Positions 39,927 through 63,996 of a DNA stretch of 64,000 nt are shown one piece after another. The stretch lies in NCBI GenBank assembly GCA_000004985.1, contig GG738865.1. The stretch is one strand, 5' to 3'. Numbering within the stretch: the stretch's first letter is position 1; the number at the start of each line of letters is the position of its first letter. Both the position numbers and the translations under genes were made by a program. The notes beneath the pieces are model-generated. The model saw only the letters and a program-made list of their open reading frames with translations, searched no databases and had not been told where the DNA came from. The stretch is from Naegleria gruberi. Lineage: Eukaryota.

Positions 39927-41505
39927 TCAATTATACTATTTATTATCGCAATGATCATTAGTAATCACCATCATCAGTATGTAAATTGTGAATCATCATC
40001 ATCATCTGTAACATCTACATCTTCATCAAATGATTCACAACAACAACAACAATATTTAGAAGAATTTAATATATTAAAAACATTAGATTCTAAAAATACA
40101 ATTTTTCATTATAAATTTACAATGAATAACATGACAAGTATGAATAATATTCAATATTTAACAAATAAATATAATTTAAATGAATTAAAATTAACATTTA
40201 CAAGAGGAAGATATAATTATAAAGATTGGGGAATTTATGATAAAATTTCACCAAATGGTTTAACTTTACAAGTTAATTTTAAAAATATTCAAAATTTCCA
40301 AATATGGGATAATTTAGTAAATGAATTAAGTGGAATATTTTGTGCAAGTATTAATTTTTTAACTCAATATGAACAACGTAGAGTTTATAATAGTGGTATT
40401 GTAAATTATTTAAATAATAATACTATATATGGTACTTTAAGTGAAGAAACAATTTGTACTGAAAATTTAACTCCTTTTAAATCAATTTTACCTTTTAGAG
40501 GTAATATGGGATTAAGTTATTTATTAAATCCTAAATTTTTATTTAATAGTTTATATTTTAGTATGGATATTACTATTAATAGTAATAATAATATTATTTT
40601 AAATTTTTATAAAATTTCTAAAATTAATCAAGAAGATTTTAAATTTATTTTAAATAAGAAATTTAAATTAATTATTCCATATGGTAAAATAATTATAAAT
40701 GATTATATTAATCAATTAAATAATTTAAATGAATTAAAATCTAATTTTACTATTTATAATAATTATATTGAAAATAAAAAAATTAAAAAATCAACTATTT
40801 TAATTAAAAGATATCAATTAAATAATAAATTAATTACAGATTTAGAAATATTAAATAATAATATAAATGAAATTTGTTATTATGATGTAATACCATGGTA
40901 TTTTAAATCATTTATTCATACCTTAAAAGTAAATGATATTTCAATTCAAAATTTAAATTATTTAAATTTTATTAAAATTTTACCTCAAAAAGATAGAACA
41001 AATCCTTTAATTTTAAATTTATGTTTTAATTATTTAAAATTTATTAAAAATAATAATTTAAATAATACTATTACTAATAAATAATAATAATAATATTAAA
41101 ATTAGTATTGAATTTGAAAAGACATATTTAAAATATACAGAACATGCACCTGATGCCAATAGAGGTTTTGATTTAAGTAGTGCAATTATTACCACTAGAA
41201 TTAATTCTAATATTAATTCTAATAATGAAATAATAGATTACAATGATTACAATGATTACAATGATAATAATGAACAAATATTATATAGTGATAGTTTATT
41301 AATTAGTTTACCTACACCTGATTTTAGTATGCCATATAATGTTATTACATTAACATGTACAATTATTGTTTTATTCTTTGGATCAATGTTTAATTTATTA
41401 ATTAGAAGATTTAATTCACGTTATGAATCCGATCAATCAAAATCTTTATTAGAACGTTTAATTTCTTTTATTAGTAAGATTTTTAAAAAGAATAAACAAG
41501 ATTAA
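39927..41505 (+). CDS. PIGT: GPI transamidase component PIG-T / Gpi16 homolog. It is 5'-partial (runs into the gap) and has an apparent frame change near 41062..41084.
   Basis: The translation contains motifs I recognise from human PIG-T in the correct order. These include GIFCASINF (human GIFCASLNF), ICTENLTPFKSILP (human VVCTENLTPWKKLLP) and YDVIPWYFKSFIHTL (human DTVPWYLRLYVHTL). After the frame change come ISIEFEKTYLKYTEHAPDANRGF (human [23 protein letters not shown]) and [35 protein letters not shown] (human [35 protein letters not shown]). The frame-0 ORF covers 39927..41084 and the open frame extends upstream as SIILFIIA-M, so the first Met is probably not the true start. The frame-1 continuation is open from 41062 to the stop at 41503..41505. 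No GT..AG intron fits between the two frames, which meet inside a poly-Asn-coding A/T run. Confidence 0.8.
41236..41265 (+). repeat. Perfect 9-bp tandem repeat, three copies of gattacaat, coding DYNDYNDYN inside PIG-T
   Basis: Seen directly: gattacaat occurs three times in a row followed by gat. It is an in-frame microsatellite within the lineage-specific insertion of PIG-T. Confidence 0.9.
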
Positions 41506-41682
41506 ATTTTATAAAATTTCAATGTATATATTTATAGTATTTAAAAATAATACAAGAATACAAGAATAACATATACCTAGTAGTAATGGTAATGGTAGTA
41601 AGAAATATAAAGCCTTTACCACAAAATGTGCGAGAAGCCAATGTTGGTTTGTGTTGGTTGGAGGGAAAATGATATTGTACTT

Positions 41683-41694
41683 TTTGGCGCCAAA
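41683..41694 (+). promoter_or_regulatory. 12-bp GC-core palindrome TTTGGCGCCAAA, 26 bp upstream of the IFT140 ATG. It matches the E2F-type consensus TTTSSCGC on both strands.
   Basis: Seen directly. This is the only GC-rich palindrome in the 214-bp spacer between the PIG-T stop and the IFT140 ATG. Any regulatory role is inference. Confidence 0.25.
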
Positions 41695-41719
41695 TTTAAA
41701 TTCAACCACTACAAAAAAA

Positions 41720-44700
41720 ATGTCTTCTACACTTCCACCTTCTGCCAGTTCTTCATCTTTATACAATATTGGATTAGTCACTGGAACATTTGGAAATAGT
41801 GTAATATATGAAAATTTTACATTACAAGGAACAACCAATAACAAGTTCCATTCTCCTGTTTGTAGTCAGTGGCATCGTAAATATCCACTATTGGCTATTT
41901 CTAAGGCTAATGGTGTAGTTTCAGTGTATGACGATCACGGAGAAAAAAACGAAAGAGTTAATTTATCTAGATCATCTAATTGTACAGCTATCGGGTGGCA
42001 TCCTACAAAATTTATTCTTTGTACAGGTTGGAAAGATGGTGCCATTCTTTTATACAATGATAAAGACCCTCATAATCAAAAGGAAATTGAATTGGAAGAA
42101 CATGGTAAAATTTGTGCTATTAAATGGTCTCCTGATGGTGAGAGATTAATAACTGCTCATCAAGTAAGTTGTTTCTTCTTCCTCAATAATAATAATTCTA
42201 ATCGTTTCTTTAATACAAAAATATGAACAATTATTCTTAATAATAATAGGATGGTAATATTGGTATTTGGAAATTTGAAGGAGGAAAACTCAAACACATT
42301 TTGAACTATGAAAATCCTGGAAATGTTGTGGAAACACCAGAACAAATTGTATTTAAAACTAATAGAGATCCATCAACAGAATTGTCTTGGATTTTCTTTG
42401 TTGGTGTTTCTACAGGACAAGGTTCTAAAATTGTTGTAGGTGTTGCCGATGATTTGGCAGAAAATTTACAAAAATCACAAAATGGTACTGTTAGATATGA
42501 ATCACTTAATGATACTGGTATTCAATTTAATGGATCTCAAATTATGAGTGTATTATTCCATAGAGAAAAATCTCAATTAGTTTTATTGACAGATACAGCT
42601 TTATTAGTTGTTTATAAAATCAATGCTTCGATTAGTAAGCCTAATGAAATTGGAATGAAACAAGTAATGAGAACTAAAATTAGTATTTCTAATAGTACAG
42701 GTGCAACAATTAAAACATTATGGGTTGGATCAGGTGTTATTGCAACCATTACAAGTAATGAGAGTATGGTAAGAGTTTGGAATTTAGAAACAGATGAAAA
42801 TACAACACTCATGTTGAACTCTCCTCTAGAACATGAAGTTGTCATTTCATTTTCATTCAATCCTCAAAAGAGAGCCATTGTTGCTGGTACAAGTACAGGT
42901 AGATTAGTATTTTGGGTTTTTACTGGTAATCAAAAGACAAGAGATCAATGGGAAAAGTATGGAGAATATTCTTTACCAAGTAGAGCTTCTGTTAATATGG
43001 TTAGTTGGGGATGTGGTGAAAAGGTTTTATGTTATGGTAGTGGAGAGAATAATGATATTGAAATTTTACAAGAAACAAGTTTCAAGAAGAGAATGAAGAA
43101 TAATACCATTGCCATTCAAAATTCTTTAAACACAGTAGTAATTGGAAAACCAAACTTTGCACCAGGAGAAGATAAAATTCCACCAAGAACAATCAAAACA
43201 GGTATTAATATTAGAGATTTTGATCATACAGATACTCATATCATTGTTTCAAATAATAGCGTTTTAGAATTATTTGAAACTAGAGGTACAGAATTAATTA
43301 GAAAAGCAGAAGCATTTGAAATTCCATCAATTTGTGTTGGTTTACACTCTGAAAGTATCTTTGTTCCAACTAATGGATCAGTTAATTCTAATCCAAGAAT
43401 TGAAGTATACAGTTTCAAAGGTATTAAGAAACAAACTTTACAATTAAGTGAAGAAGAAGGAGTTCCAATTTGTATTGATGTCCAAAGTGATTTTATTACA
43501 ATTGCAACAAATACTAATCATGTTAGAATGTGGCATGTTTTGGGAAGAGAAGCAAAACCAGTTTCAGTTTCAAAGAGAGTTTTTGATAATAATGAATCAG
43601 ATTCATCTGAAAAGACTTATATTTCAAGTGTAAAATGTAATTGTAATGGTACAATGTTAGCTTTACTTGGTAAATTGAAGAATGAAGGTGAAATGGATTT
43701 ACTTACACCAAGTACAAAATTATACGTTTATGATTTTGAACATGACAAGTTACAAAAGTTTGATTTTGAAACAAAATTCAAAGGAGGAACACCAACATCT
43801 GTTTATTGGGATTTAACTGAACCAAATCTTTTATCAGTTGAATTGAAGAATTCAGAAAGTGAATCCTATGTTTGTACAATGTTTGCAACACAAGAACATG
43901 GAACCTTATTCCAAGATTATTTCAAAATTGATAAGACTTCACAATCACTTGTTGGACAATGTGTTCCAAATTTATTCTTTGTAAAGAATAATTTTAATAG
44001 TGATGATATTTTTGAAAAGAGACCAATGAAAGATTTTGAAGGAATTGAAGAAGAACAATTATCTTCAAAAACAAAGAAGGCTCTTTTAAATTTTAGTTTT
44101 TATTTAAATATTGGTTCAATGGAAGAAGCATACAAATCAGTTAAACAAATTGAATCAAAATCATCAATTTGGTATAACATGGCCAAGATGTGTGTCAAGA
44201 CTAGAAAGATGGAAATTTCTGAAATTTGTCTTGGTAATATGAAGAATGCACTTGCAGCTAGAGCTTTAAGAAAAATTAAAGAAAGTGAACCCAATGAACC
44301 TCTTTCTTGGATTGCAACACTTGCAATTCAATTAGGAATGGTTGATGAAGCTGAAAAATTATATAATGAATGTGAAAGATTTGATTTATTGAATGAAATG
44401 TATCAATCAATTGGTAATTGGGAAAAGGCATTAGAAATTGCCAAAACCAAAGATCGTATTCATTTGAAAACAACCTATTACAAATATGCAAGATTTTTAG
44501 AACAAGAAATTGGAGATTTGAAAGGAGCAGAAAGACAATATGAATTATCAAATACTCACAAATATGAAGTACCTAGAATGTATTATAGTGCAGGAGATTT
44601 ACAAAGTTTACAAAATTATATTTTATCAAGACCTGATGATAAAGATTTAAACAAATGGTGGGCACAATATTGTGAAGGTAATACAGATTATGAAGAAGCA

Positions 44701-46221
44701 TTGAAATTTTATGTTCAAGCCAATGATTTCCTTTCTCAAGTTAGAATGTATTGTTTTATTGGTAATTTAAAGATGGCAGCAGATATTGTAAAGAAATCAC
44801 AAGAAAAATCAGCAGCTTATTATTTTGCTAAACAACTTGAAAATGAGAAGGATAATAAGAAACTATTAGAACATGCAATCAAATATTACAAATTTGCTGG
44901 ATGTTTTAATGAAGCAGTTAGAGTTTCAAAAGTATTAGGAAATGATAATGAAGCATTGAATTTAGCTTTACAATCTGCTAATGAAAAATTAATGATTGAA
45001 GTTGCACAATATTTTGAATCATCAGGTCAAACAGACAAATCAGTTTTATTATATCAAAAAGGTGGTAATTTATCAAGAGCAATTGATTTATGTTTTAAAT
45101 ATCAATTATTTGAAACATTATCAACAATTGCAGATAATATATTTAATGATAAATCTGAAAGTAAGGTAGATGATGATCCAGAAGTATTTATGAAATGTGG
45201 TCAATTCTTTATTGAACATCAACAATATGAAAGAGCTGTTCAAATGTATATAAGAGCTAAAGAATATGAATTGGCACTTGAATTATGTGTTACTAGAAAT
45301 GTTAAATTAACAGAAGAAATGGCAGATCAAATGTCTCCACCTTCAACAGATGAAAATTTAACTGAGGAAAAGATTGTTCTATTAAGAAAAATTGCCAAAG
45401 TTGCATCAATGCAAAATAATTATTCAGTTGCAACAAAGAAATATGTTCAAGCAGGTGATAAATCTAAAGCTATGAAAATACTTATCAAATCAGGTGATAC
45501 TGAAAAGATTATGTTATTTGCAGTTTTATCAAGACAAAAACAATTATATATTCAAGCTGCTAACTATTTACAAAGTTTAGATTGGCATAATGAACCTGAA
45601 ATTATCAAATCAATTATTTCATTCTATACAAAAGCTAAAGCATGGAAACATTTATCAGTTTTCTTTGAATTATGTTCACAAGTTGAAATTGATGAATATA
45701 GAGATTATGAAAAAGCATTGGATGCATTACGTGAATCTTCTAAATATTTATCTAAGGAAATTAAATTAAAAACAAGTGAAAGTAATGAATTAAGATTGAA
45801 ACAATTGAATCAAAAGATTTTATATATTGAAAAATTCATTTTAGGTAAATCCTTAATGAATTCAAAGAATAATGAAACACAATTTGTATCAATATGTAGA
45901 GAATTAATTAATGGTGTTAATAATTTAGATCCAAATGATGATCCTGTTATTGAAGTTGATGATGCTTTAAGAGTTGGAGATGTTTTTGCTATTTTAATTG
46001 AATATTATTTACAAACATTACAAGATACTTCAGAAGCTTACAAATTAATATTAGAAATGAAACAAAAAGAAATTACATTGAATTACTTTTTGGATGATGA
46101 AATGATTAAGAGTATTTGTAAATCTGTTGGTGTTGATTATAATGAAGTTATGCCACCTGAAGATAATCATTCAACTAGAACAGGTGATGATGATATTCAA
46201 GAAGAAATTGATGAAGATTAA
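41720..46221 (+). CDS. IFT140: Intraflagellar transport protein 140 (IFT-A complex subunit), join(41720..42163,42250..46221), about 1471 aa
   Basis: Exon 1 starts at aaaaaaaATG (41720) and ends at caa|gtaagt. The 86-bp AT-rich intron ends in aataatag|gat. Exon 2 is in frame and continues the WD repeat (..ITAHQ|DGNIGIWKFEGG..). The N-terminal WD40 repeats plus the C-terminal TPR-like solenoid show strong similarity to human IFT140. Matched segments include MAKMCVKTRKMEISEICLGNMKNALAARALRK (human [32 protein letters not shown]). Another is THKYEVPRM (human THRFEVPRM). The last is [51 protein letters not shown] (human [51 protein letters not shown]). The stop is at 46219..46221. Confidence 0.9.
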
Positions 46222-46258: not shown

Positions 46259-46828
46259 TTAAAGACCCTCTCCAAATACATAGGCTTTGGCAACATAGAC
46301 ACCACTTCCTCCATAATTTTCAGTCTATTAATGTATAAAGATTATTAATTTAAAAAAAACTAAACTTACAAATTCAAACTTTACAAATTGAGCATTTACA
46401 GATTGTGTATTTTCCTTATCAAAAATGTTTACTCTTTCAATAACATGATCTAATCCATTCAAATCATATAAAAAATCTCCAGAACGTTGTTCAATTTCAG
46501 CATCAACTAATTTTGTAAATTTAGTTCCATCTGTTGAAACATGAATTTGAATATGTTTAGGATTCTGATTGTTTTCTCCGTGAATATAAATTCCAACTCT
46601 TTTTACTTGTGACAATTTTTCTAATTTAATAATAAAATGTTGAGGTACTAGTAATTCCGATAATTAAATTCCAAAATTCTAAAAACACATACATGGTGCT
46701 AAATTATGTGAGAACCACACAAGACATGGATCTCTATTCATTAAATTCAAACAACGTGATTCGTGATGGTATTGACTGGAGAAGGAGTCAATACATCCTC
46801 CATTGTCAGGCATGGCAAGATTCTTCAT
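46259..46828 (-). CDS. Small (about 159 aa) galactose-binding-domain-like protein. Best guess is IFT25/HSPB11-like; alternatives are APC10/DOC-domain or NR2C2AP-like. complement(join(46259..46324,46370..46647,46693..46828)).
   Basis: The ATG at 46828..46826 follows an A-run. There are two 45-bp introns: gtatgt..ctag at 46648..46692 and gtaagt..aatag at 46325..46369. Frame continuity was checked across both junctions. The protein reads MKNLAMPDNGGCIDSFSSQYHHESRCLNLMNRDPCLVWFSHNLAPLPQHFIIKLEKLSQVKRVGIYIHG...AQFVKFEFTENYGGSGVYVAKAYVFGEGL. The pattern W-x-S ... PQxFII ... VxxLxIY and the 39-residue spacing before the single Trp resemble human IFT25 (FWTTTGMFPQEFIICFHKHVRIERLVIQS). The same fold signature also occurs in APC10, so the family call is tentative. 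It lies tail-to-tail with IFT140, with the two stop codons 37 bp apart. Confidence 0.4.
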
Positions 46829-47039
46829 TTTTTTAAAACACAATTTTAATTTTATTATTAGTTTCCTTGCATTGATGAATTTATAATTTCAAAGGTAATT
46901 CTATCCAGAGGAATTCTCTACAAGCTGAATGAAAATCATCCATCTTCAAGAGTAATTTAATTATGGAGAAATATTAAGATATTACAAATTTACAATTAAT
47001 AATAATTTTTTTAAGTGATTTATTTTCTGGGTAAACAAT

Positions 47040-47615
47040 TTATCTGTTAGCCTTGGAGACTCTTTCAACTTCATCCTTCTTCTTAATAGCATAAGAGTTT
47101 GGTGACATCTTAGCACAGTTGATGATTTCATCAGCCAAACATTCAGCCAAAGACTTGATGGTTCTGAAAGAAGCTTCACGAGAACCTTGAGTAATCAAGT
47201 AGATAGCAACGTTAACTCTTCTCAATGGGGAAACGTCGACAGCTTGTCTTCTGACAACACCAGCAGTACCAATTCTGGTGGAGTCTTCTCTTGGACCACC
47301 GTTTTGGACAGCATCAACCAAAATTTGGAGTGGGTTTTCCTTGGTCATGATGTGGATCAATTCGAAAGCGTGCTTGATAATTCTGACAGCCAACAACTTC
47401 TTACCGTTGTTTCTACCGTGCATCATCATTGAGTTGACGAGTCTTTCAACGATTGGGCAGTGTTGCTTTCTGAATCTCTTGACGTTGTATCTACCAGCAG
47501 AGTGTGGCAAATATTGAGCGTGTTCAGGAGAAGAAGCAATGTAATCCTTCAAGGAGAGATCCTTGACTTCAATGTTTTGGTATGACCACTTGCCGAACAA
47601 TTTGACGGAGGACAT
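47040..47615 (-). CDS. RPS5: 40S ribosomal protein S5 (uS7), 191 aa, apparently a single exon
   Basis: The translation is near-collinear with human RPS5. Shared motifs include KLFGKWS and YLPHSAGRY. Another is [29 protein letters not shown]. The C-terminal half carries [31 protein letters not shown] followed by [19 protein letters not shown]. The locus is visibly GC-richer than its surroundings. Codons are C/G-ending and yeast-like optimal (TTG, AAG, AGA, GGT, GCT, CCA, TCC, ACC), as expected for a highly expressed gene. Confidence 0.95.
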
Positions 47616-48245: not shown

Positions 48246-48914
48246 ATGGGTCGTCATAAAAAAGAAAAACCAAACGGAATACCAAATTGTAAAGAATTTA
48301 CACCTGCAATGTCTGAAGTGAGCACAAATAATTTCATTTTCTATAATGGCCCAAATAATTCCAATAATAATAATACAAACCACTCTTCCAAAACTAAAAA
48401 ACAAACAAATTTAATTAATAATCATTCTAATAGTAGTAGTAGTAATAGTAGTGGTAGTAGTAATCAAGATCAAATTTATAATTATCAAGCCTATCATATC
48501 AATAATAATATTACTACTGGTAATGTAGGTGGTTCAAGATCAAACCAAACTAGTCATCAAGTTAGTGAAGTAGTTAATAACTCTCTCAATAATAGTAATA
48601 CCAACACTACTAATGGTGTATCAATGTATTTACAAAATCCATATCTATTATATAGTATTATGAATTTAGGAAATAATCAATTAAATTTATCTAATCAATT
48701 AAAAAGTGATCAACCAAATCATAATTATTCATATATGAATAACTTTGGATTAAATACAACAACAACAACTAATACTGCTAGTAGTAACATTACTATGAAT
48801 AATAATAATAGTCAAATAACTAATAATACATCAACTCATCAAAAAAGTGAGAGTAGCGTATTTCCTTTGAAACTTGATATTGAGGAATTACTAAATTCAA
48901 TATATTTTGAATAA
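48246..48914 (+). CDS. Hypothetical low-complexity Asn/Ser/Thr-rich protein (222 aa) with a basic N-terminus (MGRHKKEKPNG)
   Basis: The ORF is from the track, with the ATG in an A-rich context. It shows host-like codon usage and homopolymer-rich composition. I recognise no conserved domain. It is transcribed divergently from RPS5 across a 630-bp spacer. Confidence 0.5.
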   Translation: MGRHKKEKPNGIPNCKEFTPAMSEVSTNNFIFYNGPNNSNNNNTNHSSKTKKQTNLINNHSNSSSSNSSGSSNQDQIYNYQAYHINNNITTGNVGGSRSNQTSHQVSEVVNNSLNNSNTNTTNGVSMYLQNPYLLYSIMNLGNNQLNLSNQLKSDQPNHNYSYMNNFGLNTTTTTNTASSNITMNNNNSQITNNTSTHQKSESSVFPLKLDIEELLNSIYFE

Positions 48915-49264: not shown

Positions 49265-49337
49265 GCCCCGCTAGCTCAGTCGGTAGAGCGTTGGACTTTT
49301 AATCCAACGGTCGTGGGTTCGAGCCCCACGTGGGGCG
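49265..49337 (+). tRNA. tRNA-Lys (anticodon UUU), 73 nt, no intron
   Basis: Cloverleaf checked by hand. The acceptor stem GCCCCGC pairs with GTGGGGC (one G-U). The D-arm is TAGCTCAGTCGGTAGAGC. The anticodon arm TTGGA-CTTTTAA-TCCAA has TTT at positions 34-36. The T-arm is GTGGG-TTCGAGC-CCCAC with discriminator G. There is no encoded CCA, and a T-run follows. Confidence 0.92.
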
Positions 49338-49870: not shown

Positions 49871-50799
49871 TTATAAATCATATAAATTAATATGACCAAA
49901 TGTATCAGTTGTAATAAATTGATTAATTTCAGTTAAATAATTTCCATTTGTAACACATGGTTGTTGTTGATGATTATAGGCAGAATGAATTAATTCAAAA
50001 TTATTTGAATTAACTTGATAAACTGAAAATTTGTTCATTCCCAATGAAATTAATAATTTCTTTTGTGGTTCATAAATAAAATCACCAATCATATTCACTG
50101 CTTTATCTATAAATGATATTAATGTTTTACCTGTTCTAATATCATGTACTTGAATAGATCCATCTCCATATCCTTTTTTTTTTATAATATAATATTAAAT
50201 TAATATTATATTATAAAAATAAAAATTAAAATAAATTAAATAAATATTAATAATAAAATTAAATATTAAATAATTAAAAATTAAATAAAAAAAAACATAC
50301 CTAAACAAACAGTAAAATCATCTAAATAAACATGAGTAAATAAATCATATTTACTTGTATCATAAACAAAAGCAGGTTTACTTGTATTACCTGTTCTAAC
50401 ATCAAAAACATGTAAAACACCTTGATCAGTAGTAGCAGATGCAACATTTGAATCTGAAGGATGAAATCTAACACATGAAACAACATCTTGACATAAATAA
50501 ACTGAATTTTCAGATTTAACTTGATTAGTTTGTATATCATCTACTAATTTACTAATATCAGTGACAAATACTTTTTCATCAAATCCACCTGATATTACTA
50601 ATGATTGATTAACTGGATTTATAGCAAATTGTCTAATTGTATCATGATGAAATTTAGGAAATATATCAATTACATTAATATCATTCAATTCTTCATTTAA
50701 TATAACAATACCTAATTCTCCATTAGCTGCTATTATTATTCTTCTAGGATCTTTAGGTAACCATTCTAAATAACGTAAATGTTCTTCAATTGGTTGCAT
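49871..50799 (-). CDS. WD40-repeat protein, about 271 aa, complement(join(49871..50172,50301..50799)), family not identified
   Basis: Exon 1 begins MQPIEEHLRYLEWLPK... and ends ..FTVCLG at the donor g|gtatg. The 128-bp intron is about 100% A/T and ends in (a)n ag. Exon 2 reads GYGDGSIQVHDIRTGKTLISF...INLYDL in frame. Typical WD signatures are present: GG-x-D-x-V, HP-x-S, G-x-L-HVFDVRTG and DGSIQVHDIRTG. Without using the intron, the frame would terminate as ..CLGMFFFI. Confidence 0.7.
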
Positions 50800-50859
50800 T
50801 TTTAATATATTTAAATTTAAATTTATTTATATTTGAATTTATATTATTTGAATTTATAT

Positions 50860-51465: not shown

Positions 51466-53941
51466 ATGTCAACAATTGGATAACATATTGGAAGTTTGTT
51501 ACAATGATGAGCAACATTTTGAATGAACTGTTCATAATATATTACCCATAGAAATGGAACAACAGTTGATCTAGAACCACTTTATCAAAATACAGTTGTA
51601 TTCAAGGTATTAAGCTCAGGAACTGTTTAACACCTTTAAATGATTCAACCTCAAAAGACAAACTAAATTCATAAATTGGATTACAAACAATTAAGTAATA
51701 ACAATAAAATTCAAATATATTGATGACTTGGGATTTTATTTATACATGATGATAAATGATTATTAGCAGAGTAAGGTTATGGGGATTCAATTTACTCTCT
51801 TTGGTAAATAGTTTGATGTTTTTATGAAAAAGGTTTAAAAGCTCTGGCAGCATATGCTGTCAATTTTTGTAATGAAAGTCATATGTTGACGACACGGTTG
51901 TGTTAAACATGATTCTTGAACCTTTCCTTTGAGAATTGGAAAATCATGACTCACTAAATAGCTTGACAAATTAAATCAGGAATATTTGAAGAGAAATTGT
52001 GATGGTTGTTTCCTTGTTGTTTGTAGTAAACATAGTGTTGGAGAATGCTAATAGCAGAGTACCAGGTTGGTAAGGATTATTATTAAGGATGGAATCTCTC
52101 GAAAAAATCAAAACAGAGTCTGTATGATGGATATTTTGGGGTAAGAAACTTAAGAGTCTTTTTAAAATCCAATTAAGCTTATTAAGATTTTATTTGCAAG
52201 GATTGATTCAAAAGAATGTAACGCATCACTAATATATATTGGATATTTCTGGCATATAATTACTCTCAATTACTATATCATTCTTAAAAATCTCATTACA
52301 AATTATGAGAACTCAATTTTTCATTTTATCATTACAAAAATCCAAACCTCAAAACAGTTATTATGAGGACACAACAGATTTTCCAATAGAGTGAAGTTGG
52401 AGGTTTTCATTGCACAATCATTCCAAGCATTAAAAATTCCTCAAACATCAACTGTTGTTGAAAATATTCCAGGATACAAATCTTATTGCTGAACCAACTG
52501 TTTCTGAAGAATCTAGTGCTCAACCAAATTTACCAATGGTTTTCCAAACGAATGATCAACAAGTCACCAGGTAAAATAAATTGTAATACTGTCAAATGCA
52601 ATTTTATAATCGTTAAATGGTTTGCAGAATGTATATCCGGAACATACCGTAAGCATTTTTTAACTATAACATATAATCACATATACTTAAAAGAGCGGTC
52701 CAGAATTGCTGAAGAAAACTTTAAGTGTAGAAGAACATAGCCAAATCATTATAACTGTAAAAATATCGATTTGTAAATAATCGTTCAAAAATATACAGTA
52801 TATGAATAGAACAGCTCTTGGAGTGTTAGATAGGAACTTAGATAAGTCTCGGATTGTTAAAAGGGAGCATGTAAATCGTACTCAACGGCGTATATACGGA
52901 GTACATACACTAACAATCAAATTTTACCACATATATGGGTTAATGTTATCGTATGTATTATCCCCTGATCATATTTCCCATCATTCTAAACTAAAATCCG
53001 CTTGTTTATTGATGATTCCTTCCTATGAATAATGCTTACAATGTTTCGTTATGAATTGTTACGTTGAATAGAACCAATCAGATAGCAGTTAATGTAAGTA
53101 TTTGGTGAAGTATTGTTGGAACGTGCATGAGTGTTTTGAAAGTGTACACCTTTATTTTAGATGAAAAACAACAAAAATGTTAAATTTAAAAGCTAAAATA
53201 AGAATATGGTTTTATTTTCAAAATATAATCTTGTTTTTGTAAACTTTTCATTATTCTTTCCTCTTCTTTTCTTTCTGTTCTTGCTATTTTTCAATCAAGA
53301 AGTATCAATTCTTCATATACTGTTTAGTTTGTTTTAATTTCATAAGCAATCCTTCTATACAGTGAATTTCTCTTGCAACGAAAATTTTTCAAGATGAAGA
53401 GATATCAATTTTTTTTGAAAATTCTCTTCTTTCCAAATCTCTTCCATCCTAATGCAACATCATGTCAACATTATGCTCTGGCACTTTCTGTACACTATCA
53501 AGAGCACCAACAACATGAATGAGAAAAAGCAAAGACTACTTCAACAACTATTAGAAAATTTCAAATGTTGTTTCCAGCAGTCGTTAACAGAGTTAATTTT
53601 ATCGAAATGGATTTTCTGATTTTATCCCTTCATATTTGAAAATTCATTTGAAGAATAATCAAATACGGAGCTTTTTGTAAGAAAATTACATAACAGTATA
53701 TTTGAGTCATCATTCGATTGAAGAGCAATTAAACATTTTAAACATCCAATTTACTCGTCTAAATCTTGGGAATTATTGTGAAATATTTGATGGAGATTTG
53801 AAGATGGTAGAGTATCTTTGAATTTGTGAATTATTCTTTATTTTACTAATAATGGTGGTGGTGGTGTATTATTATATCATTTTATATCATTGTGAATATA
53901 TTTCCATCTTCAACCATTTTGAATATTAATTAAAACAATCA

Positions 53942-54016
53942 ATTTAATAATAATTTAAAACAATATTTAAATTGTTGAATATTCAATAAAATTATTGTTT
54001 TAAATTATTATTAAAT
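53942..54016. repeat. Long near-perfect inverted repeat (hairpin). The 24-nt arms at 53942..53965 and 53993..54016 flank a 27-nt loop that itself contains the palindrome ttgaatattcaa.
   Basis: Verified by hand. The left arm ...tttaataataatttaaaacaata is the reverse complement of the right arm tattgttttaaattattattaaa. The central segment is partially self-complementary. Confidence 0.75.
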
Positions 54017-54060
54017 AACAAGTAGATTGATCCTTTAAGTTATTATTAAATAACAAGTAG
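54006..54060 (+). repeat. Direct repeat of a roughly 21-bp unit ttattattaaataacaagtag, two copies separated by 16 bp. A third, looser copy is near 54345 (ttaattaacaagtag).
   Basis: Seen directly. The first copy overlaps the right arm of the hairpin. Confidence 0.6.
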
Positions 54061-55564
54061 TGATGAGAACATGTTCTAAAATCAACAACAATATAATTCC
54101 AATTTATTAAACATAATTCATCCATGACTTTCAATTATTAAAATATTATTTTTCTATTAAATATTTATAGAATGATTCGAGTACAAATTAATAATTTTCC
54201 TCTAAACGTTAAATTCTTTGGTGGTGTGTATTTTAAATTATTTCATCAACACACACATTTTTTATTGCAATATCTTTCAAGTGTTGAGAATATTATTTCT
54301 TGTTTGTCGGTTAGTGGTGAATAAACACTCCAATGTTCAATTCTTGTTAATTAACAAGTAGTACGCATTGCATGACCTCACTCAGTCAACAACAATTTAA
54401 TGTCATCTCCTACCAATTATGAAAGAATATTGTGAAATATCAACTAGTTAACATACATAGTAAGTAGTGTGTGAATATTTAATTGTCATCAATCGATTGT
54501 TTAACCAACAAGTAATTTCAATACTTATTCAGAACATTATCATGATTACATTATTTCTTCAACTCAAGTGCAGCAGAACAACAACAGTCACATTTTACAA
54601 TAAATGTATCTACAGTAAAATACGAATCGTTACATTAATTGAAGGGATGACCATCAGGTTGAATACAACAACAATAATACTGTAGTAGAGAGAGTGAAAA
54701 GTTATTTAATTTCACACATTAACATTTAAGAAGAATACGAACCTGAAATGACATTTAAATTTGAACAACTTTCCACAATAAAAGTCAATATGATTTTCAT
54801 CTTGTTGAATCACCATCATCATCATGACAATGCACGAATCGTATTCTACACAACACATTCGCAAATGATGAATTTTGTCTTCATCAACTTGTCTCTCACA
54901 ATCTATCTGAACCATTCAAGAGGTTTCATATTTATACAAATGTCAACAATACGCCCAAATCGAATCTTTTTGCCATTTCCAAATAAAATCCATTGAACAG
55001 ATAAATACAATACTAACAATACATGGATTAAATGAAAATCATTTATTCTCTCTATCATGAATTCTTCATCATTCTTTACATTTGTAATTTATAGAGATAA
55101 TACAATTCAACAAATTATTGAGATTGTTTTTTTATAAGCCAATAATCAACACCATTAAATAAGGTTTCTTATTAAAGGAGTAAAAGAATATAGAAACTAT
55201 TATTCGATAGTAGTTAATAGAAACAACGACACTCATCCAAATGTCAACCATGGTGGAAGTAAGTGTGTACCTTAAAATTTGGAGCACTTGATAATTGGTC
55301 CTTTCTGTTATTTTAATGACCCGACATTTGATATTAAAAAATGCGATGTTTTTATTTTGGCAACTGCTTATCAAAATTCAAACGTTTCGAAAAAGAGCGC
55401 TTTTAATATTCGGTTGATGATACTCTGCCAACACAGCATGATTGGATAATAAAATTTAATATTCAAAAGAAAAAAACCAACCTAAACTAAAATTGTTGTT
55501 GATACTCAATCAGCATCATTTCTAAGATTGTTATCCATTCAAAACAAACTCTCCACAACACAAC

Positions 55565-57028
55565 ATGATGAATAATAATACTACTGCTGCTACTACAAGT
55601 GGTAGTAATGACATGTTCAGTTTTATTGAACCACCAACATTGGTGATTGGTAAAAAACCATCCACCAGTAATTCCAATTCAACACTGACACCAACTGGTT
55701 TATTGTTATCTTCACCACATTTATTCTTGATGGAAAATGATTTTCAATCACTTATTCAATCTACTTCAACTCCTACAAGTATTAATAATAATAATTTAAT
55801 GAATCATTTGAATAATAACATGATTCATACCAATAATAATGCTAATGCTACTACTATTTCATCGTCAGCATCTGATTTGGTGAATCATCACTTGTTCTTA
55901 TTACAAACACCAACTTCACCAACAACAATAACACCTATTATTAATACTTCAACTACTTCAACTTCAACTGCATTAACACCTACAAGTGCAAATAATTTAT
56001 TGATGAATAATTTTCTTTCATCATCAGGTGGTTTACTTTCACCTGATTTTGATCAAAATCCAATGCTTTCTAATAATCAATCAAGTACTAATACACCTAC
56101 CTCTTCAATGGGTAATCCTATTTGGTTACAACAACAATTATGTGATATCATTGATGATGTATTTCCAGAAGCTGATCAATTATTAGCTAATAATAATCAT
56201 GTTGTAATGGAACAACAACAACATAATAATAATAATGTTATTAATCAATGTAATGTTGCTGCTACAACAACATCTATTCTATCAGTATTATTAAATAATA
56301 ATACAAATACAAATAATAATAATAATAATAATACTATTATTTGTCATCCTAATCAACAACAAAATGTGTCACCAGTCAATAATTTATCACCAAATAATCA
56401 TGGTAAAACATCACCTTCTATTATTAATCATCAAACAATAACACCTATTATTATTAATAATACTCCACAATGTAATAATACTATGCAACAACAACAACAA
56501 GTATTTTCAAATAATAATATAAATACAAGTACTACTATTAAACAAGTTGGAGGAGGAAGTAAAAAGAAAAAGTCAACAACTAAATCCATTTCACCTACTA
56601 CTAGTACCATAACAAGTACAACTAATATGAGTACTAAATCATTCTTTAATACAAATATTGATCCATCTGCATTCTATTATGGTACTTCTGGTTTTTTGAA
56701 ATTCCACGACTATTCAGGTAGATTAAATACAAAGAAGAAGAATCATACATTTGCTGCTTCATGTGAAAAGATTCAAAAACAAAACAAAATGTTAAATCAT
56801 CATCATCACCAACCAATTATTAATAATATGAGTAATAGATCATCATCTATGATTTCTTCTAATAACAATAATAATAATATGATGATGATGACATCAGTAG
56901 CAGGTAATAATACTCATACTAATACTAATACTACAGGTACATCATTTCAAGAACAACAACAACATAATATTTATGATGAAATGAAATTTAAATCTGCTTG
57001 TCCAAATCAAGTATTTTACAAAATGTAA
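55565..57028 (+). CDS. Hypothetical Asn/Thr/Ser-rich low-complexity protein (487 aa) with poly-N, poly-Q and His runs
   Basis: ORF from the track, with the ATG in the context acaacATGATG. It shows host-like codon usage and I recognise no conserved domain. It lies head-to-tail upstream of RPC2 with a 228-bp spacer. Confidence 0.5.
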   Translation: MMNNNTTAATTSGSNDMFSFIEPPTLVIGKKPSTSNSNSTLTPTGLLLSSPHLFLMENDFQSLIQSTSTPTSINNNNLMNHLNNNMIHTNNNANATTISSSASDLVNHHLFLLQTPTSPTTITPIINTSTTSTSTALTPTSANNLLMNNFLSSSGGLLSPDFDQNPMLSNNQSSTNTPTSSMGNPIWLQQQLCDIIDDVFPEADQLLANNNHVVMEQQQHNNNNVINQCNVAATTTSILSVLLNNNTNTNNNNNNNTIICHPNQQQNVSPVNNLSPNNHGKTSPSIINHQTITPIIINNTPQCNNTMQQQQQVFSNNNINTSTTIKQVGGGSKKKKSTTKSISPTTSTITSTTNMSTKSFFNTNIDPSAFYYGTSGFLKFHDYSGRLNTKKKNHTFAASCEKIQKQNKMLNHHHHQPIINNMSNRSSSMISSNNNNNNMMMMTSVAGNNTHTNTNTTGTSFQEQQQHNIYDEMKFKSACPNQVFYKM

Positions 57029-57256: not shown

Positions 57257-60200
57257 ATGTTCTTGAATCCCTCTAACAAGAACAAGAATAATACAACCAA
57301 TAATTCTTCTTCCTCCTCTAATAATAATAATTTAAAAAATTCTCTCGGAGGAGGAGTAGGTGATGATGATGAAGGAGGAGGTGTGGATAATCTTCATGAT
57401 TTATTATATGGTAATCCTAATAAAATAACGGAGCCTATTAAAACAGTTGAAGAAAAATGGCGTTTATTACCAGCCTTTATGAAAGTTAAAGGATTATTTA
57501 GACAACATATAGATTCATTTAATTATTTTATTAATGTTGATATTAAAAAGATAGTACAAGCTAATAGTATGATTACACCTGATACGGATGATAAATTTTA
57601 TATTAAATATAATGATATTTATATTGCCAAGCCTAGATTAGATGAAGGAACTGATACAATAGAATTAACACCACAATTATGTAGATTGAGAGATTTAACA
57701 TATTCAGCAGATATAATTGTTAGTGTTGAATATCCACAAATAGTTGGAAATGAAACATTGATAAAACATGAAGATTTAAGTATAGGTAGAATGCCAATCA
57801 TGTTACAATGTGATAGATGTGTATTATGTGGTAAAGATGATAAAGAATTAGCAAAATTAGGAGAATGTCCATTAGATCCAGGTGGTTATTTTATTGTAAA
57901 GGGAGTTGAAAAAGTTTGTTTAATTCAAGAACAGTTATCTAAAAATAGAGTAATTATAGATTTAGATAAAGAAAAACAAATAACAGCATCAGTAACAGGT
58001 TCAACACATTATAGAAAATCTAAAACTAATATTATAATCAAACATGAAAGATTTTATTTAGATCATAATAGTTTTACAAAAGATATACCAATTATAATGT
58101 TATTTAAAGCTATGGGTATTGAATCAGATCAAGAAATTGTTCAATTAATTGGAAGTGATAGAAAATATATTGATGCATTAGGTCCTTCTTTTGAAGAATG
58201 TATTCGTGAAGGTGTTTATACATCTGAACAAGCTATTGAATACATGTCTAGATATTTAAAATTAGCTGATTTTAGAAAAAACAAACCTAAAATGGAAGAA
58301 ACTAGAGAAATTTTATCAAATATTATATTATGTCATATTCCTGTTTATAAATTTAATTACAAGATGAAAATTGTTTATTTAGCAATCATGGTAAAAAGAA
58401 TGATTGATGCTTTACATGATTCTGCAAATATAGATGATAAAGATTATTATGGTAATAAGAGATTAGAAATGGCAGGTCAATTACTTTCTTTATTATTTGA
58501 AGATTTATTTAAAAAATTTAATGATGAAATTAAAAAAACATTAGAAAAGAAAACAGGTAGAAGAAGTAGAAGAGCCACTTCAACACCCACTGAAGATATT
58601 TCATCTATTTTTAATGCAAATAGTTCTAAAATTACAGAAGGTTTAAAAAATTCAATCTCCTCTGGTAATTGGAATGTACAAAGATTTAAAATGGAACGTG
58701 CAGGTGTAACACATGTTTTAAGTAGATTATCATTTATTGCTGCATTGGGTATGATGACTAGAATTTCATCACAATTTGAAAAGACAAGAAAAGTATCAGG
58801 TCCACGTGCATTACAACCTTCACAATGGGGATTATTATGTCCATCTGATACACCTGAAGGTGAAGGATGTGGTCTAGTTAAAAATCTTGCACTTCTCACA
58901 CACGTTACAACAGATGATGAAGAAGAACCAATTATTAGATTAGCTTATAATATTGGTGTTGAAGATATTAATTTAATTTCAGGTGAAGAATTGAATCATC
59001 CATCTTCATATGTTGTATTTTTGAATGGTTTAATTTTAGGTATACATAGATTTCCATCACAATTTACAAAATTATTTAGAATGATGAGAAGAGCAGGTAA
59101 AATACATGAATTTGTATCAATTTTTAAAAATGATTTACATAAGGCTATTTATATTGCAAGTGATGGTGGACGTGTTTGTAGACCATTAATAATTGTTGAA
59201 AATCAAAAGTTAAAAGTAACACAAAAACATTTAAGTGAATTAGCTGAAGGTATTAGAACATGGGATGATTTTTTAAAAGAAGGTTTGATTGAATATTTAG
59301 ATGTTAATGAAGAAAATAATTCAAATATTGTTTTCAGAGAGGAAGATATCAAATTAGAAACTACTCATTTTGAAATTGAACCATTTACTATATTAGGTGT
59401 ATGTGCAGGTTTAGTTCCTTATCCACATCATAATCAATCACCACGTAATACTTATCAATGTGCTATGGGTAAACAAGCAATGGGTGCTATTGCTTATAAT
59501 CAATTTAATCGTTTAGATACTTTATTATTATTAATGGTTTATCCACAAAAACCAATGGTTAAAACTAAAACTATAGAATTAATTCAATTTGAAAAATTAT
59601 CAGGTGGTCAAAATGCATCCATTGCAGTTATGAGTTATTCTGGTTATGATATTGAAGATGCTGTTGTTGTTAATAAGGCTAGTATTGATCGTGGATATGG
59701 ACGTTGTATTTATTTAAAGAAATACGTCACTGAATTGAAGAGATATCATAATGGTGTTGAAGATGTTTTACAACCACCACCAAATGCACAACAAGCAAAA
59801 GATATGGATCAAAAGAGATTAAAATCATATCAACGTTTAGATTTTGATGGTATGTGTGCTGTAGGTGAGAGAATTTATCCAAATGATATGTACATTAATA
59901 GATTTGTTGCACAAAATACTCAAGATAATTTACTTGGTATGAATACACCTACTCCATCATCATCAAATGGAGGTGCTGGTGCTTCTAGTGCTAGCTGCTG
60001 CTAATACCTACAAACCATCACCAATATTTTACAAAGGACCATGTAGTGTCTATGTAGATCAAGTATTAATTACACCAAATTATGATAGAGGTGGATATGC
60101 ATTAAAATATTTATTAAGACAAACAAGAAGACCTGAATTGGGTGATAAATTTTCATCACGTCACGGTCAAAAAGGAGTATGTGGATTAATTGTAGATCAA

Positions 60201-60863
60201 CAAGATATGCCATTTAATGAACAAGGTATATGTCCAGATATGATTATGAATCCTCATGGTTTTCCATCACGTATGACAGTTGGTAAAATGATTGAATTAA
60301 TATGTGGTAAATCAGGAGTATTAAATGGTAAACAAGGATATGGTACAGCATTTGGAGGAGATAAAGTAGAAGATATTGGAAAGGGATTAATTAGACATGG
60401 ATTTTCATATAGTGGTAAAGATTTATTAACGAGTGGTATAACAGGTGAAACCATGTCATGTTATATTTATTTTGGACCTGTTTTTTATCAACGTTTAAAA
60501 CATATGGTTTTAGATAAAATGCATGCTAGATCTAAGGGACCTGTTAGAATTTTAACAAGACAACCACTTGAAGGTCGTTCAAAAGAAGGTGGTTTAAGAT
60601 TAGGTGAAATGGAACGTGATTGTTTAATTGGATATGGTGCAAGTGCATTATTATTAGAAAGATTAATGTTATCTTCAGATGAATATAAGGTACATGTTTG
60701 TGAAGATTGTGGAATGATTGGATATATGGGTTATTGTAATTTTTGTAAATCAAAACAAAATATTTCACTTTTACCAATGCCATATGCTTTTAAATTATTA
60801 ATTCAAGAATTACAAGCAATGAATATTTCACCAAAACTTAAATTATCACCTTTTGAAAAGTAA
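57257..60863 (+). CDS. POLR3B: DNA-directed RNA polymerase III second-largest subunit (RPC2/POLR3B/Ret1 homolog). It has an apparent frame break within 59941..60004.
   Basis: The N-terminal segment matches human RPC2. It carries [37 protein letters not shown] and, further on, [41 protein letters not shown]. The C-terminal part is in a different frame. It starts with [47 protein letters not shown] and [41 protein letters not shown]. It ends with the zinc-ribbon segment CEDCG..CNFCKS. The two frames overlap only within a Ser/Gly/Ala-coding, unusually GC-rich insert (..ggaggtgctggtgcttctagtgctagctgctgct..). No intron is possible there. Confidence 0.9.
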
Positions 60864-61512: not shown

Positions 61513-63996
61513 TTAAATATCTTCTAAAATAATACCACCTGTTGAATCTCTCAATTCCTTTTCAATGACGACATTTTGTACTCTTCTAACAATATTCTTA
61601 TTTTGATGTGATGTATGGGAGTGATGTGAATGATGTGTTGGACCAACTACATGATGATGATGAATTCTATGTTCATTTCCTAATATAACACTTCTATCTG
61701 CACTTGATAATATATTTGATTTTACAACAATTTTAGTATCATACCAGAAATATCTAAATACAACATAAATGGTAATATACACTGCAATATTAATTAAAAT
61801 TAAAAATGTAAGTAATGCAAATAAAAACCAAAATGTTGAAATGAAATAAGAACCATCTTGACATACTAAATTCTTAATATTACCATATTTAGTATTTAAA
61901 GTTTTACAAGTGACTAGAGATGCAACTTGCATTAAACTAGTATATAAATTATTCATTAAAGAATAAATAGTATCTTGTATAGATTTAACAAGAGCAGGTC
62001 TAATTTTAACATTTGTACCTAATGAAGAAATTAAACTAGAAACTAAATTAGGAGAATCATCAACAATAAATTTAATAGAAGATAATAAATCTGAAATTTG
62101 ATCATTTTTACAATCAAGTAAATAAGTTTGTGATAAACCATGTAAATCAGTATTAAATGAAATATTATATTTATAAAAAGAAGCTTCAAATTTTAAAGTA
62201 GCATTAATACCATATGAATCAACACTTTCAATTATATAATTTTCTAAATTATTACATGTATCACTTAATAAAATATTAATAGGTAACATGAAACATAAAA
62301 CAATACATCCTAATAATCCTAATAACATTAAACATATAATTTCAATATATAATAAAGATGGACATTTATAACAACATGATGGTAATATTGCTATTAATGG
62401 TAATAATACTATAAAACTTATAAATATAATTACTCCTAATAATCTATATCCATCCCATTTTAATATATCAATCATATATATATTATTTAATTGATAATTT
62501 ACTTCATCTTTCCACCATATATAGGTTTGTACTTTAACATTACCCAATGTAGTTATAATATTTGTAAATATACTTCCTAAATTTAAATATGAACTAAATG
62601 TTACAATATCAAATTGAGTTATAATTGCTGATATATCCATATTAGATGCTACTTGTAATATTGGTTGACATGATTCTATTTGTCTTGTAAATTCATTAAA
62701 TGGTAAAGTTGAAAATGATGAATTACCATTTTTAATACCATCACTTACTTGTTGTAATGGTAAATTTAATCCTACTTGTTTAATACCATTACCATATAAA
62801 GTTAATAATGTCAAGGCTTGATTAAAATTAAAATTATTATTAATAGTTTTTAATGGTGTTATTTGATTTTTTAATATAGTTTTTGAAATTAATTCTTTAT
62901 AATTATTCAATTCAGTTTTAATATATTGTAATGATGTTAAATTATTTAATGCAATTCTTAAATTTACTACTTTTGGATATAATTCTAATGATTTAGTATT
63001 TAAAACATTACATTGTGATGATACATCATTATAACATGTTGTTTTACCTTGATTATATGCTGCATTTACTAAATATTTATAATTTTCTAATTTTAAATCA
63101 TCAAAATCATTCAATGTTGTATTTAATTCTTGAAATGTATTACTTGCATTTAATAAATTCATATAATTATTAATATTATTATAATAATTTAAATAAGTTA
63201 TATTCATATTAGTTAAATTAATTAAAGAATATTGATTTTTAAATTCTATAATAGGTAATACTTGTTTTAAATTATTTAAATTTATATTTGATAAATCTAA
63301 TGTATTATTAAATAAAATAGAAATGGATGAAATAACTTGTTGATTAATATTTGAAATACTATTAATAGAATTATAATATTTTGTAATATCACCATTTACA
63401 AAAGTATTTAAAAGAGATTTAGATGAAGAATAATAATCAAATAAATTAACATTTGGTAATTCAACAAAAGTATCATTAATATATTTAATATCTTTAATTA
63501 AATTATCAATACAATTAGTTTGTTGTAAAATTGAATTAAAAAATAAAACTTGTGAATAAATATCTTGAATAAATTGTAAAGATGGAATTGAATTAATGGC
63601 AAATGTTAAACTTCTCAAATCATCTTTTAATAATTTATACTTGTTTGGTAATGTTTGATTAACATCTTGATTAAATAAATTTAAATTATTAAATGTTAAA
63701 TTTAAATTTGAAATTTGATTAAAAGATAATTGTAATTCATTTAATTTTAATTTTAATTCAAATTCTGATGGTAATTGTGATAAAGTATTATTCATATAAA
63801 TTAAATTATTAATTAATGTTATAATTGGTAATTTAAATAAATTTATATTATTTTGTAATATAATAGTTTCATAATATAAATTTGATAATTGTACAATATT
63901 ACTTGTTTTAAAATGTGATAATTCATATTCAAATTGATTAAAATATTTAAAATTTAATGTTGTATTCGTTTGATCTTGTAATGTTTGTATTGTATT
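61513..63996 (-). CDS. Large multipass membrane protein with an N-glycosylation-site-rich ectodomain; the 5' end is unresolved. The first in-frame ATG is at 63795, but the frame stays open to 63996 near the window edge.
   Basis: A single open frame on the minus strand, 760 aa from the ATG. About 440 residues carry a very high density of N-x-S/T sequons and Leu/Asn heptad-like repeats. Then comes a first TM (LLGVIIFISFIVLLPLIAIL), a cytosolic-side Cys cluster (PSCCYKCPS) and a second TM. A loop of about 160 aa with paired Cys follows, then a long hydrophobic segment that could be 1-2 TMs, and a His-rich tail (HRIHHHHVVGPTHHSHHSHTSH). The upstream extension has no Met and the same composition as the body. 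So the real start probably lies in an upstream exon or beyond the window. Confidence 0.55.
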   Translation of the reverse strand, partial: NTIQTLQDQTNTTLNFKYFNQFEYELSHFKTSNIVQLSNLYYETIILQNNINLFKLPIITLINNLIYMNNTLSQLPSEFELKLKLNELQLSFNQISNLNLTFNNLNLFNQDVNQTLPNKYKLLKDDLRSLTFAINSIPSLQFIQDIYSQVLFFNSILQQTNCIDNLIKDIKYINDTFVELPNVNLFDYYSSSKSLLNTFVNGDITKYYNSINSISNINQQVISSISILFNNTLDLSNINLNNLKQVLPIIEFKNQYSLINLTNMNITYLNYYNNINNYMNLLNASNTFQELNTTLNDFDDLKLENYKYLVNAAYNQGKTTCYNDVSSQCNVLNTKSLELYPKVVNLRIALNNLTSLQYIKTELNNYKELISKTILKNQITPLKTINNNFNFNQALTLLTLYGNGIKQVGLNLPLQQVSDGIKNGNSSFSTLPFNEFTRQIESCQPILQVASNMDISAIITQFDIVTFSSYLNLGSIFTNIITTLGNVKVQTYIWWKDEVNYQLNNIYMIDILKWDGYRLLGVIIFISFIVLLPLIAILPSCCYKCPSLLYIEIICLMLLGLLGCIVLCFMLPINILLSDTCNNLENYIIESVDSYGINATLKFEASFYKYNISFNTDLHGLSQTYLLDCKNDQISDLLSSIKFIVDDSPNLVSSLISSLGTNVKIRPALVKSIQDTIYSLMNNLYTSLMQVASLVTCKTLNTKYGNIKNLVCQDGSYFISTFWFLFALLTFLILINIAVYITIYVVFRYFWYDTKIVVKSNILSSADRSVILGNEHRIHHHHVVGPTHHSHHSHTSHQNKNIVRRVQNVVIEKELRDSTGGIILEDI

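Follow-up and report, generated by a model that had tools for sequence, protein, structure and literature searches.

An intact single-intron IFT140 gene in an AT-rich stretch of the Naegleria gruberi genome

Intraflagellar transport (IFT) is part of the core machinery by which flagella are built. IFT140 belongs to its IFT-A complex, which has four subunits of the WD40-WD40-TPR plan and is required for dynein-2-driven return transport and for the entry of membrane cargo. A catalogue of the IFT genes of Naegleria gruberi has reportedly existed since 2010, when Fritz-Laylin et al. described the genome, and a full complement of IFT-A and IFT-B subunits, kinesin-2 and dynein-2 is reported to have been described there and by van Dam et al. 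in 2013. The architecture of IFT140 and its role in the IFT-A polymer have been described, and in the anterograde trains of Chlamydomonas, IFT-A lies between IFT-B and the membrane, with its WD domains oriented toward the membrane (PMC10191852). Our analysis of a window of 64,000 nucleotides (nt) from contig GG738865.1 of the N. gruberi assembly GCA_000004985.1, the whole stretch of DNA considered here, indicated with a probability of about 97% that the gene at positions 41720-46221 on the plus strand is the intact single-intron IFT140 of N. gruberi strain NEG-M. The gene is already known, being annotated as IFT140 in GenBank, RefSeq and UniProt. IFT140 of Chlamydomonas reinhardtii (8BDA/8RUY chain G) and human IFT140 (8BBF, 8FGW) are distant orthologues that share the two-propeller plus TPR plan of the Naegleria protein and are collinear with it nearly throughout; the Naegleria protein differs in its first 41 residues, which are poorly conserved, and in small indels within the propellers.

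The gene model consists of two exons separated by a single intron, as established from the sequence and its translation:

41720..42163, plus strand: IFT140 exon 1, codons 1-148, ending in ...ITAHQ
42164..42249, plus strand: the only intron, phase 0, 86 nt, GTAAGT...AATAG, 20% GC
42250..46221, plus strand: IFT140 exon 2, codons 149-1471 and stop (1323 codons + TAA)

The last codons of exon 1, ACT GCT CAT CAA, are followed by GTAAGT at 42164, and the frame is regained at 42250. Joining the exons yielded a coding sequence of 4416 nt, comprising 1471 codons and a stop codon with no internal stops, and this exactly reproduced the coordinates and the length of 1471 amino acids that the first-pass annotation had proposed. 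The GC content at third codon positions (GC3) was 13.6%. All 1471 residues of the conceptual protein were identical to those of EFC45009.1 / XP_002677753.1 / UniProt D2VE31, named "IFT140 [Naegleria gruberi]".

The domain content of the protein was profiled with hmmscan against Pfam-A, and structurally characterized relatives were sought with phmmer against all PDB chains. Four IFT140-specific Pfam models were each matched nearly end to end, far above their cut-offs:

41843..43071, plus strand: first IFT140 beta-propeller, spanning the intron; amino acids 42-422; PF23383 (Beta-prop_IFT140_1st), E = 3.5e-51, profile 13-404/406
43108..43986, plus strand: second IFT140 beta-propeller; amino acids 435-727; PF23385 (Beta-prop_IFT140_2nd), E = 9.6e-47, profile 4-318/319
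44113..45624, plus strand: TPR solenoid; amino acids 770-1273; PF24762 (TPR_IF140-IFT172), E = 4.1e-173, profile 1-486/486
45649..46062, plus strand: C-terminal TPR domain of IFT140; amino acids 1282-1419; PF24760 (TPR_IF140_C), E = 9.9e-30, profile 2-124/124

With a tandem pair of WD40 beta-propellers at the N-terminal end and a long TPR solenoid behind them, all within 1471 amino acids, the protein fits the plan of IFT140 (~1400-1500 amino acids), and the full-length WD40 plus TPR architecture described earlier was thereby confirmed. Generic WD40 models and those of the paralogues (WDR19, WDR35 and IFT80/172) scored much more weakly than the IFT140 models. The search of structure chains agreed, with the following matches:

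8bda_G: Chlamydomonas IFT140, E = 8.8e-230, query residues 47-1446 on chain residues 15-1378
8fgw_E and 8bbf_B: human IFT140, E about 1e-216
8hme_D: Tetrahymena "intraflagellar transporter", E = 5e-201
8f5o_E: kinetoplastid IFT-A chain, E = 1.2e-142
IFT122, WDR19, IFT172 and WDR35 chains: E from 1e-4 to 1e-8

IFT140-specific models and IFT140 chains were thus by far the best matches in both searches, as expected if the gene is an orthologue of IFT140.

In a BLASTP search of a large protein collection, the closest relatives were from Naegleria lovaniensis (80% identity, 99% coverage) and Willaertia magna (67%), followed by an unnamed transcriptome protein (35%) and then by lepidopteran IFT140s (25-26%). 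In a MAFFT alignment, identity to the window protein was 83% for N. lovaniensis and Naegleria fowleri, 68% for Willaertia and 38% for the next relative. The TPR solenoid was the best-conserved part, with identities of 88%, 88%, 79% and 48% to N. lovaniensis, N. fowleri, Willaertia and the next non-vahlkampfiid relative, respectively. The orthologues C9374_009153 of N. lovaniensis and FDP41_010529 of N. fowleri (1504 amino acids; 83% identity over 99% coverage) are 33 residues longer than IFT140 of N. gruberi and have a GC3 of 37%, as against 14%. In N. lovaniensis, too, the gene (locus L001, 10001-14583) carries one phase 0 intron, of 68 nt with the ends GTAAGT...TTTAG, and the alignment placed it in the same column (HQ|DG) and phase as the intron of N. 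gruberi. When codons were compared between IFT140 of these two species, identity was 83%, 92% and 54% at codon positions 1, 2 and 3 (position 2 > position 1 > position 3), and the same codon was used at only 56% of the identical residues. This pattern of identity across codon positions shows that the sequence is a coding gene under purifying selection and not a relic.

Since the beta-propeller plus alpha-solenoid plan is common to coat proteins and IFT paralogues, the protein could in principle be a non-IFT WD40/TPR coat (COPI alpha/beta', HOPS/CORVET Vps or clathrin heavy-chain-like) or another IFT subunit (IFT144/WDR19, IFT122, IFT121/WDR35, IFT172 or IFT80), and weak cross-matches were indeed obtained: Beta-prop_WDR19_1st at 2.3e-14, TPR_IFT80_172 at 7.2e-08 and a Clathrin/VPS repeat at 3.8e-05, the last at 23.9 bits and under its own cut-off of 29.6 bits. 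The IFT-A paralogues IFT144/WDR19, IFT122 and IFT121/WDR35 have the same domain plan and belong to the same complex, but they form separate orthologous groups of marginal similarity (E about 1e-8 to 1e-4), and WDR19, IFT122, IFT172 and WDR35 chains matched only in that range. Against this, IFT140 models and chains from four eukaryotic supergroups outscored these matches by more than 130 orders of magnitude and covered the whole length, and IFT140 is also the name given to the protein in the source record; an identity other than IFT140 is accordingly very improbable. The hmmscan and phmmer scores ruled out coatomer and HOPS in particular; the best matches were clearly not to the coatomer, HOPS or other WD/TPR proteins that the first-pass annotation had named as grounds for abandoning its assignment. 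It could also be argued that the gene is a decaying relic whose function in flagellar assembly has been lost, given that Naegleria lives mostly as an amoeba without flagella and selection would act only through the transient flagellate stage. The 1471-amino-acid reading frame is nevertheless intact, all domains are full length, the intron is kept in N. lovaniensis, and a protein identity of 83% is retained between species that agree at just 54% of third codon positions. An intact frame, full domains, the codon-position pattern and the kept intron together rule out a pseudogene, and we regard loss of function as having hardly any probability. What weighs against our gene model as drawn lies at its N-terminus, where the first 41 residues were the least conserved part of the protein (59% identity to each of N. 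lovaniensis and N. fowleri, 37% to Willaertia and 7% to the next relative); such weak conservation, even within Naegleria, makes the exact start codon the least certain element of the model. Nothing in the sequence contradicts the assignment to IFT140 of N. gruberi.

The host has been viewed differently on grounds of composition. The IFT140 gene had been taken to mean a host that builds flagella and is neither Dictyostelium-like nor Plasmodium-like, which proved right for the amoeboflagellate N. gruberi, but a zoosporic lineage resembling anaerobic gut fungi had been put forward, which is not the case. A fungus of the Neocallimastigomycota type, or another AT-rich ciliated lineage, would agree with the 26% GC, the asparagine (Asn)-rich open reading frames (ORFs), the short AT-rich introns beginning with GTAAGT and the C-ending codons of RPS5, features that fit several AT-rich eukaryotes. 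Besides IFT140, however, two further products encoded in the window were exactly identical to N. gruberi proteins: the RPS5 ORF (47040-47615, minus strand) to XP_002677843.1, "ribosomal protein S7 [Naegleria gruberi strain NEG-M]", and the Asn-rich ORF 48246-48914 to XP_002677754.1 (NAEGRDRAFT_67134), a 'predicted protein' of N. gruberi. The records of all three lie on one contig of 820,293 nt, and these three exact identities place the window within the published N. gruberi NEG-M assembly. The next matches, at 83% and 68%, were vahlkampfiid; elsewhere none exceeded 38%, and no fungal protein was among the matches listed. N. gruberi is classified in Eukaryota; Discoba; Heterolobosea; Naegleriidae. 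A fungal host is ruled out by the exact identity to N. gruberi proteins, and the probability of any other host is smaller still than that of the rival readings of the gene discussed above.

Part of the compositional argument survived. Positions 1-39925 of the window are all N, a run that could be an assembly gap or scaffold-end padding, and the real sequence (39926-64000; 24,075 nt) has 26.4% GC. AT-richness is therefore real here, but the description of an extremely AT-rich genome was overstated, as the N. gruberi genome has a GC content of 33% (PMC8296547) or 35% (PMC6125883), and this is a locally AT-rich stretch. The Asn-rich character of neighboring proteins was borne out by ORFs 48246-48914 and 55565-57028. 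RPS5 does have a codon bias distinct from that of its neighbors, with a GC3 of 47% as against 10-14% in IFT140 and RPC2 and a preference for AAG, AAC and TTC. The supposed fungal-type codons are merely C/G-ending preferred codons, and the bias is the ordinary translational-selection bias of a highly expressed gene without fungal signal.

The genes around IFT140 are as follows:

39951-41505, plus strand: PIG-T/Gpi16 GPI-transamidase gene, with its last-exon stop at 41503-41505
41506..41719, plus strand: intergenic spacer of 214 nt, separating the stop codon of PIG-T (Gpi16) from the IFT140 ATG (41720)
46271-46835, minus strand: F5/8 type C (discoidin) domain gene (F5/8C), small and multi-exon here
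47040-47615, minus strand: RPS5/uS7
49877-50802, minus strand: WD40 gene downstream of RPS5

The gene order in the window, Gpi16 (PIG-T) - IFT140 - F5/8C - RPS5 - [Asn-rich ORF, tRNA-Lys] - WD40, is in part common to N. lovaniensis, which has Gpi16 - UCH - IFT140 - F5/8C - RPS5 - WD40; UCH, which lies between Gpi16 and IFT140 in N. lovaniensis, is absent from that place in N. gruberi. PIG-T, RPS5 and the WD40 gene have the opposite strand relative to IFT140 from that of their N. lovaniensis orthologues. Because the order of RPS5 and the WD40 gene is kept while their strands are flipped, the inversion of a single block is insufficient, which indicates at least two small rearrangements. The F5/8C gene stands tail to tail with IFT140, whose stop codon is about 50 nt away, and the position of F5/8C is kept in N. 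lovaniensis, where the product has 158 amino acids. The real sequence begins (39926) just 25 nt ahead of the ATG of PIG-T. The first ORF of PIG-T has 15.5% GC, a GC3 of 4% and 17% Asn, and the gene contains two or more short introns, its exons matching Gpi16 of N. lovaniensis at 40128-40976, 41104-41190 and 41284-41460.

The spacer at 41506-41719 presumably serves as the promoter and 5′ untranslated region of IFT140, a role suggested by its position. The known transcription factors of cilia genes, RFX, FOXJ1 and XAP5, are missing from Naegleria (PMC12183034). Given their absence and the short distance of 214 nt between the end of PIG-T and the IFT140 ATG, the spacer may hold a compact differentiation-responsive element common to Naegleria flagellar genes. 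We consider this unlikely, and the idea is speculative because an alignment of the regions upstream of IFT140 in N. gruberi and N. lovaniensis contained no conserved block except the ATG context.

The remaining features of the window are these:

48246-48914, plus strand: Asn/Ser/Thr-rich low-complexity ORF, 23% Asn
49265-49337, plus strand: tRNA-Lys(UUU), found by ARAGORN and by the Rfam tRNA model (70.9 bits), between ORF 48246-48914 and the WD40 gene
55565-57028, plus strand: Asn/Ser/Thr-rich low-complexity ORF, 18% Asn
57257-60863, plus strand: RNA polymerase second-largest-subunit gene (the RPC2 of the first-pass annotation), Rpb2 domains 1-7
61513-63795, minus strand: Asn-rich ORF of 760 amino acids, hydrophobic in parts of the C-terminal half

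The tRNA-Lys gene was the sole Rfam or tRNA match in the window. The RPC2 gene falls into two ORFs that overlap and differ in frame, with the junction near 59937-59988; a very short phase 1 intron there (59937-59988; 52 nt, GTATGA...TTCTAG) would restore the frame, and an assembly frameshift is the alternative. No Pfam match was obtained for ORFs 48246-48914, 55565-57028 and 61513-63795, the last of which possibly encodes a membrane protein. The raw ORFs of 760 and 487 amino acids had no exact database entry and presumably do not coincide with the models in the annotation. In the interval 51466-55564 (about 4 kb), neither strand contained an ORF of at least 90 amino acids (the longest has 84). 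Searches of the interval for Rfam families, for tandem repeats and, by tblastx, for similarity to the N. lovaniensis locus were all negative. Its GC content of 23-31% is like that of coding regions, and the other genes of the window are closely packed. A gene with many introns, a locus for a non-coding RNA and a decayed element are all conceivable here.

Naegleria is an amoeboflagellate and serves as a model for the assembly of basal bodies and flagella (PMC6125883, PMC12183034), and its differentiation transcriptionally induces many cilia genes (PMC12183034; bioRxiv 10.1101/2024.01.08.573270), a set to which IFT140 probably belongs. In a full-text search of the literature on Naegleria together with IFT140 or IFT-A/IFT-B, only incidental mentions were found. 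With every domain present at full length, the same structural role in Naegleria as in described IFT-A complexes is the best-supported interpretation. By homology, the TPR arm of Naegleria IFT140 would pair with IFT144/WDR19 and extend into the neighboring IFT-A repeat, polymerizing the train, and the two beta-propellers would be turned to the flagellar membrane; membership in the complex and this position in the train are thus proposed by analogy. IFT-A would be carried into the flagellum on IFT-B trains, and the gene may be used only as amoebae become flagellates, making basal bodies and flagella de novo. As for IFT-A in other organisms, loss of IFT140 in Naegleria could be expected to produce a retrograde-IFT or membrane-cargo phenotype.

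The importance of the finding is mainly that of context: with the source fixed as N. gruberi NEG-M, the other findings in the window are to be judged against the published annotated genome. In public databases, the orthologues of the pathogen N. fowleri and of N. lovaniensis are labeled 'hypothetical protein' or 'Anaphase-promoting complex subunit 4 WD40 domain-containing protein'. The gene is intact in N. gruberi and has been kept in these sister species at 83% amino acid identity, a level at which their proteins are clearly IFT140 and could be renamed as such. The paradox of IFT in combination with a Dictyostelium-like or Plasmodium-like base composition is likewise resolved, as Naegleria, an AT-rich amoeba, forms flagella when they are needed.

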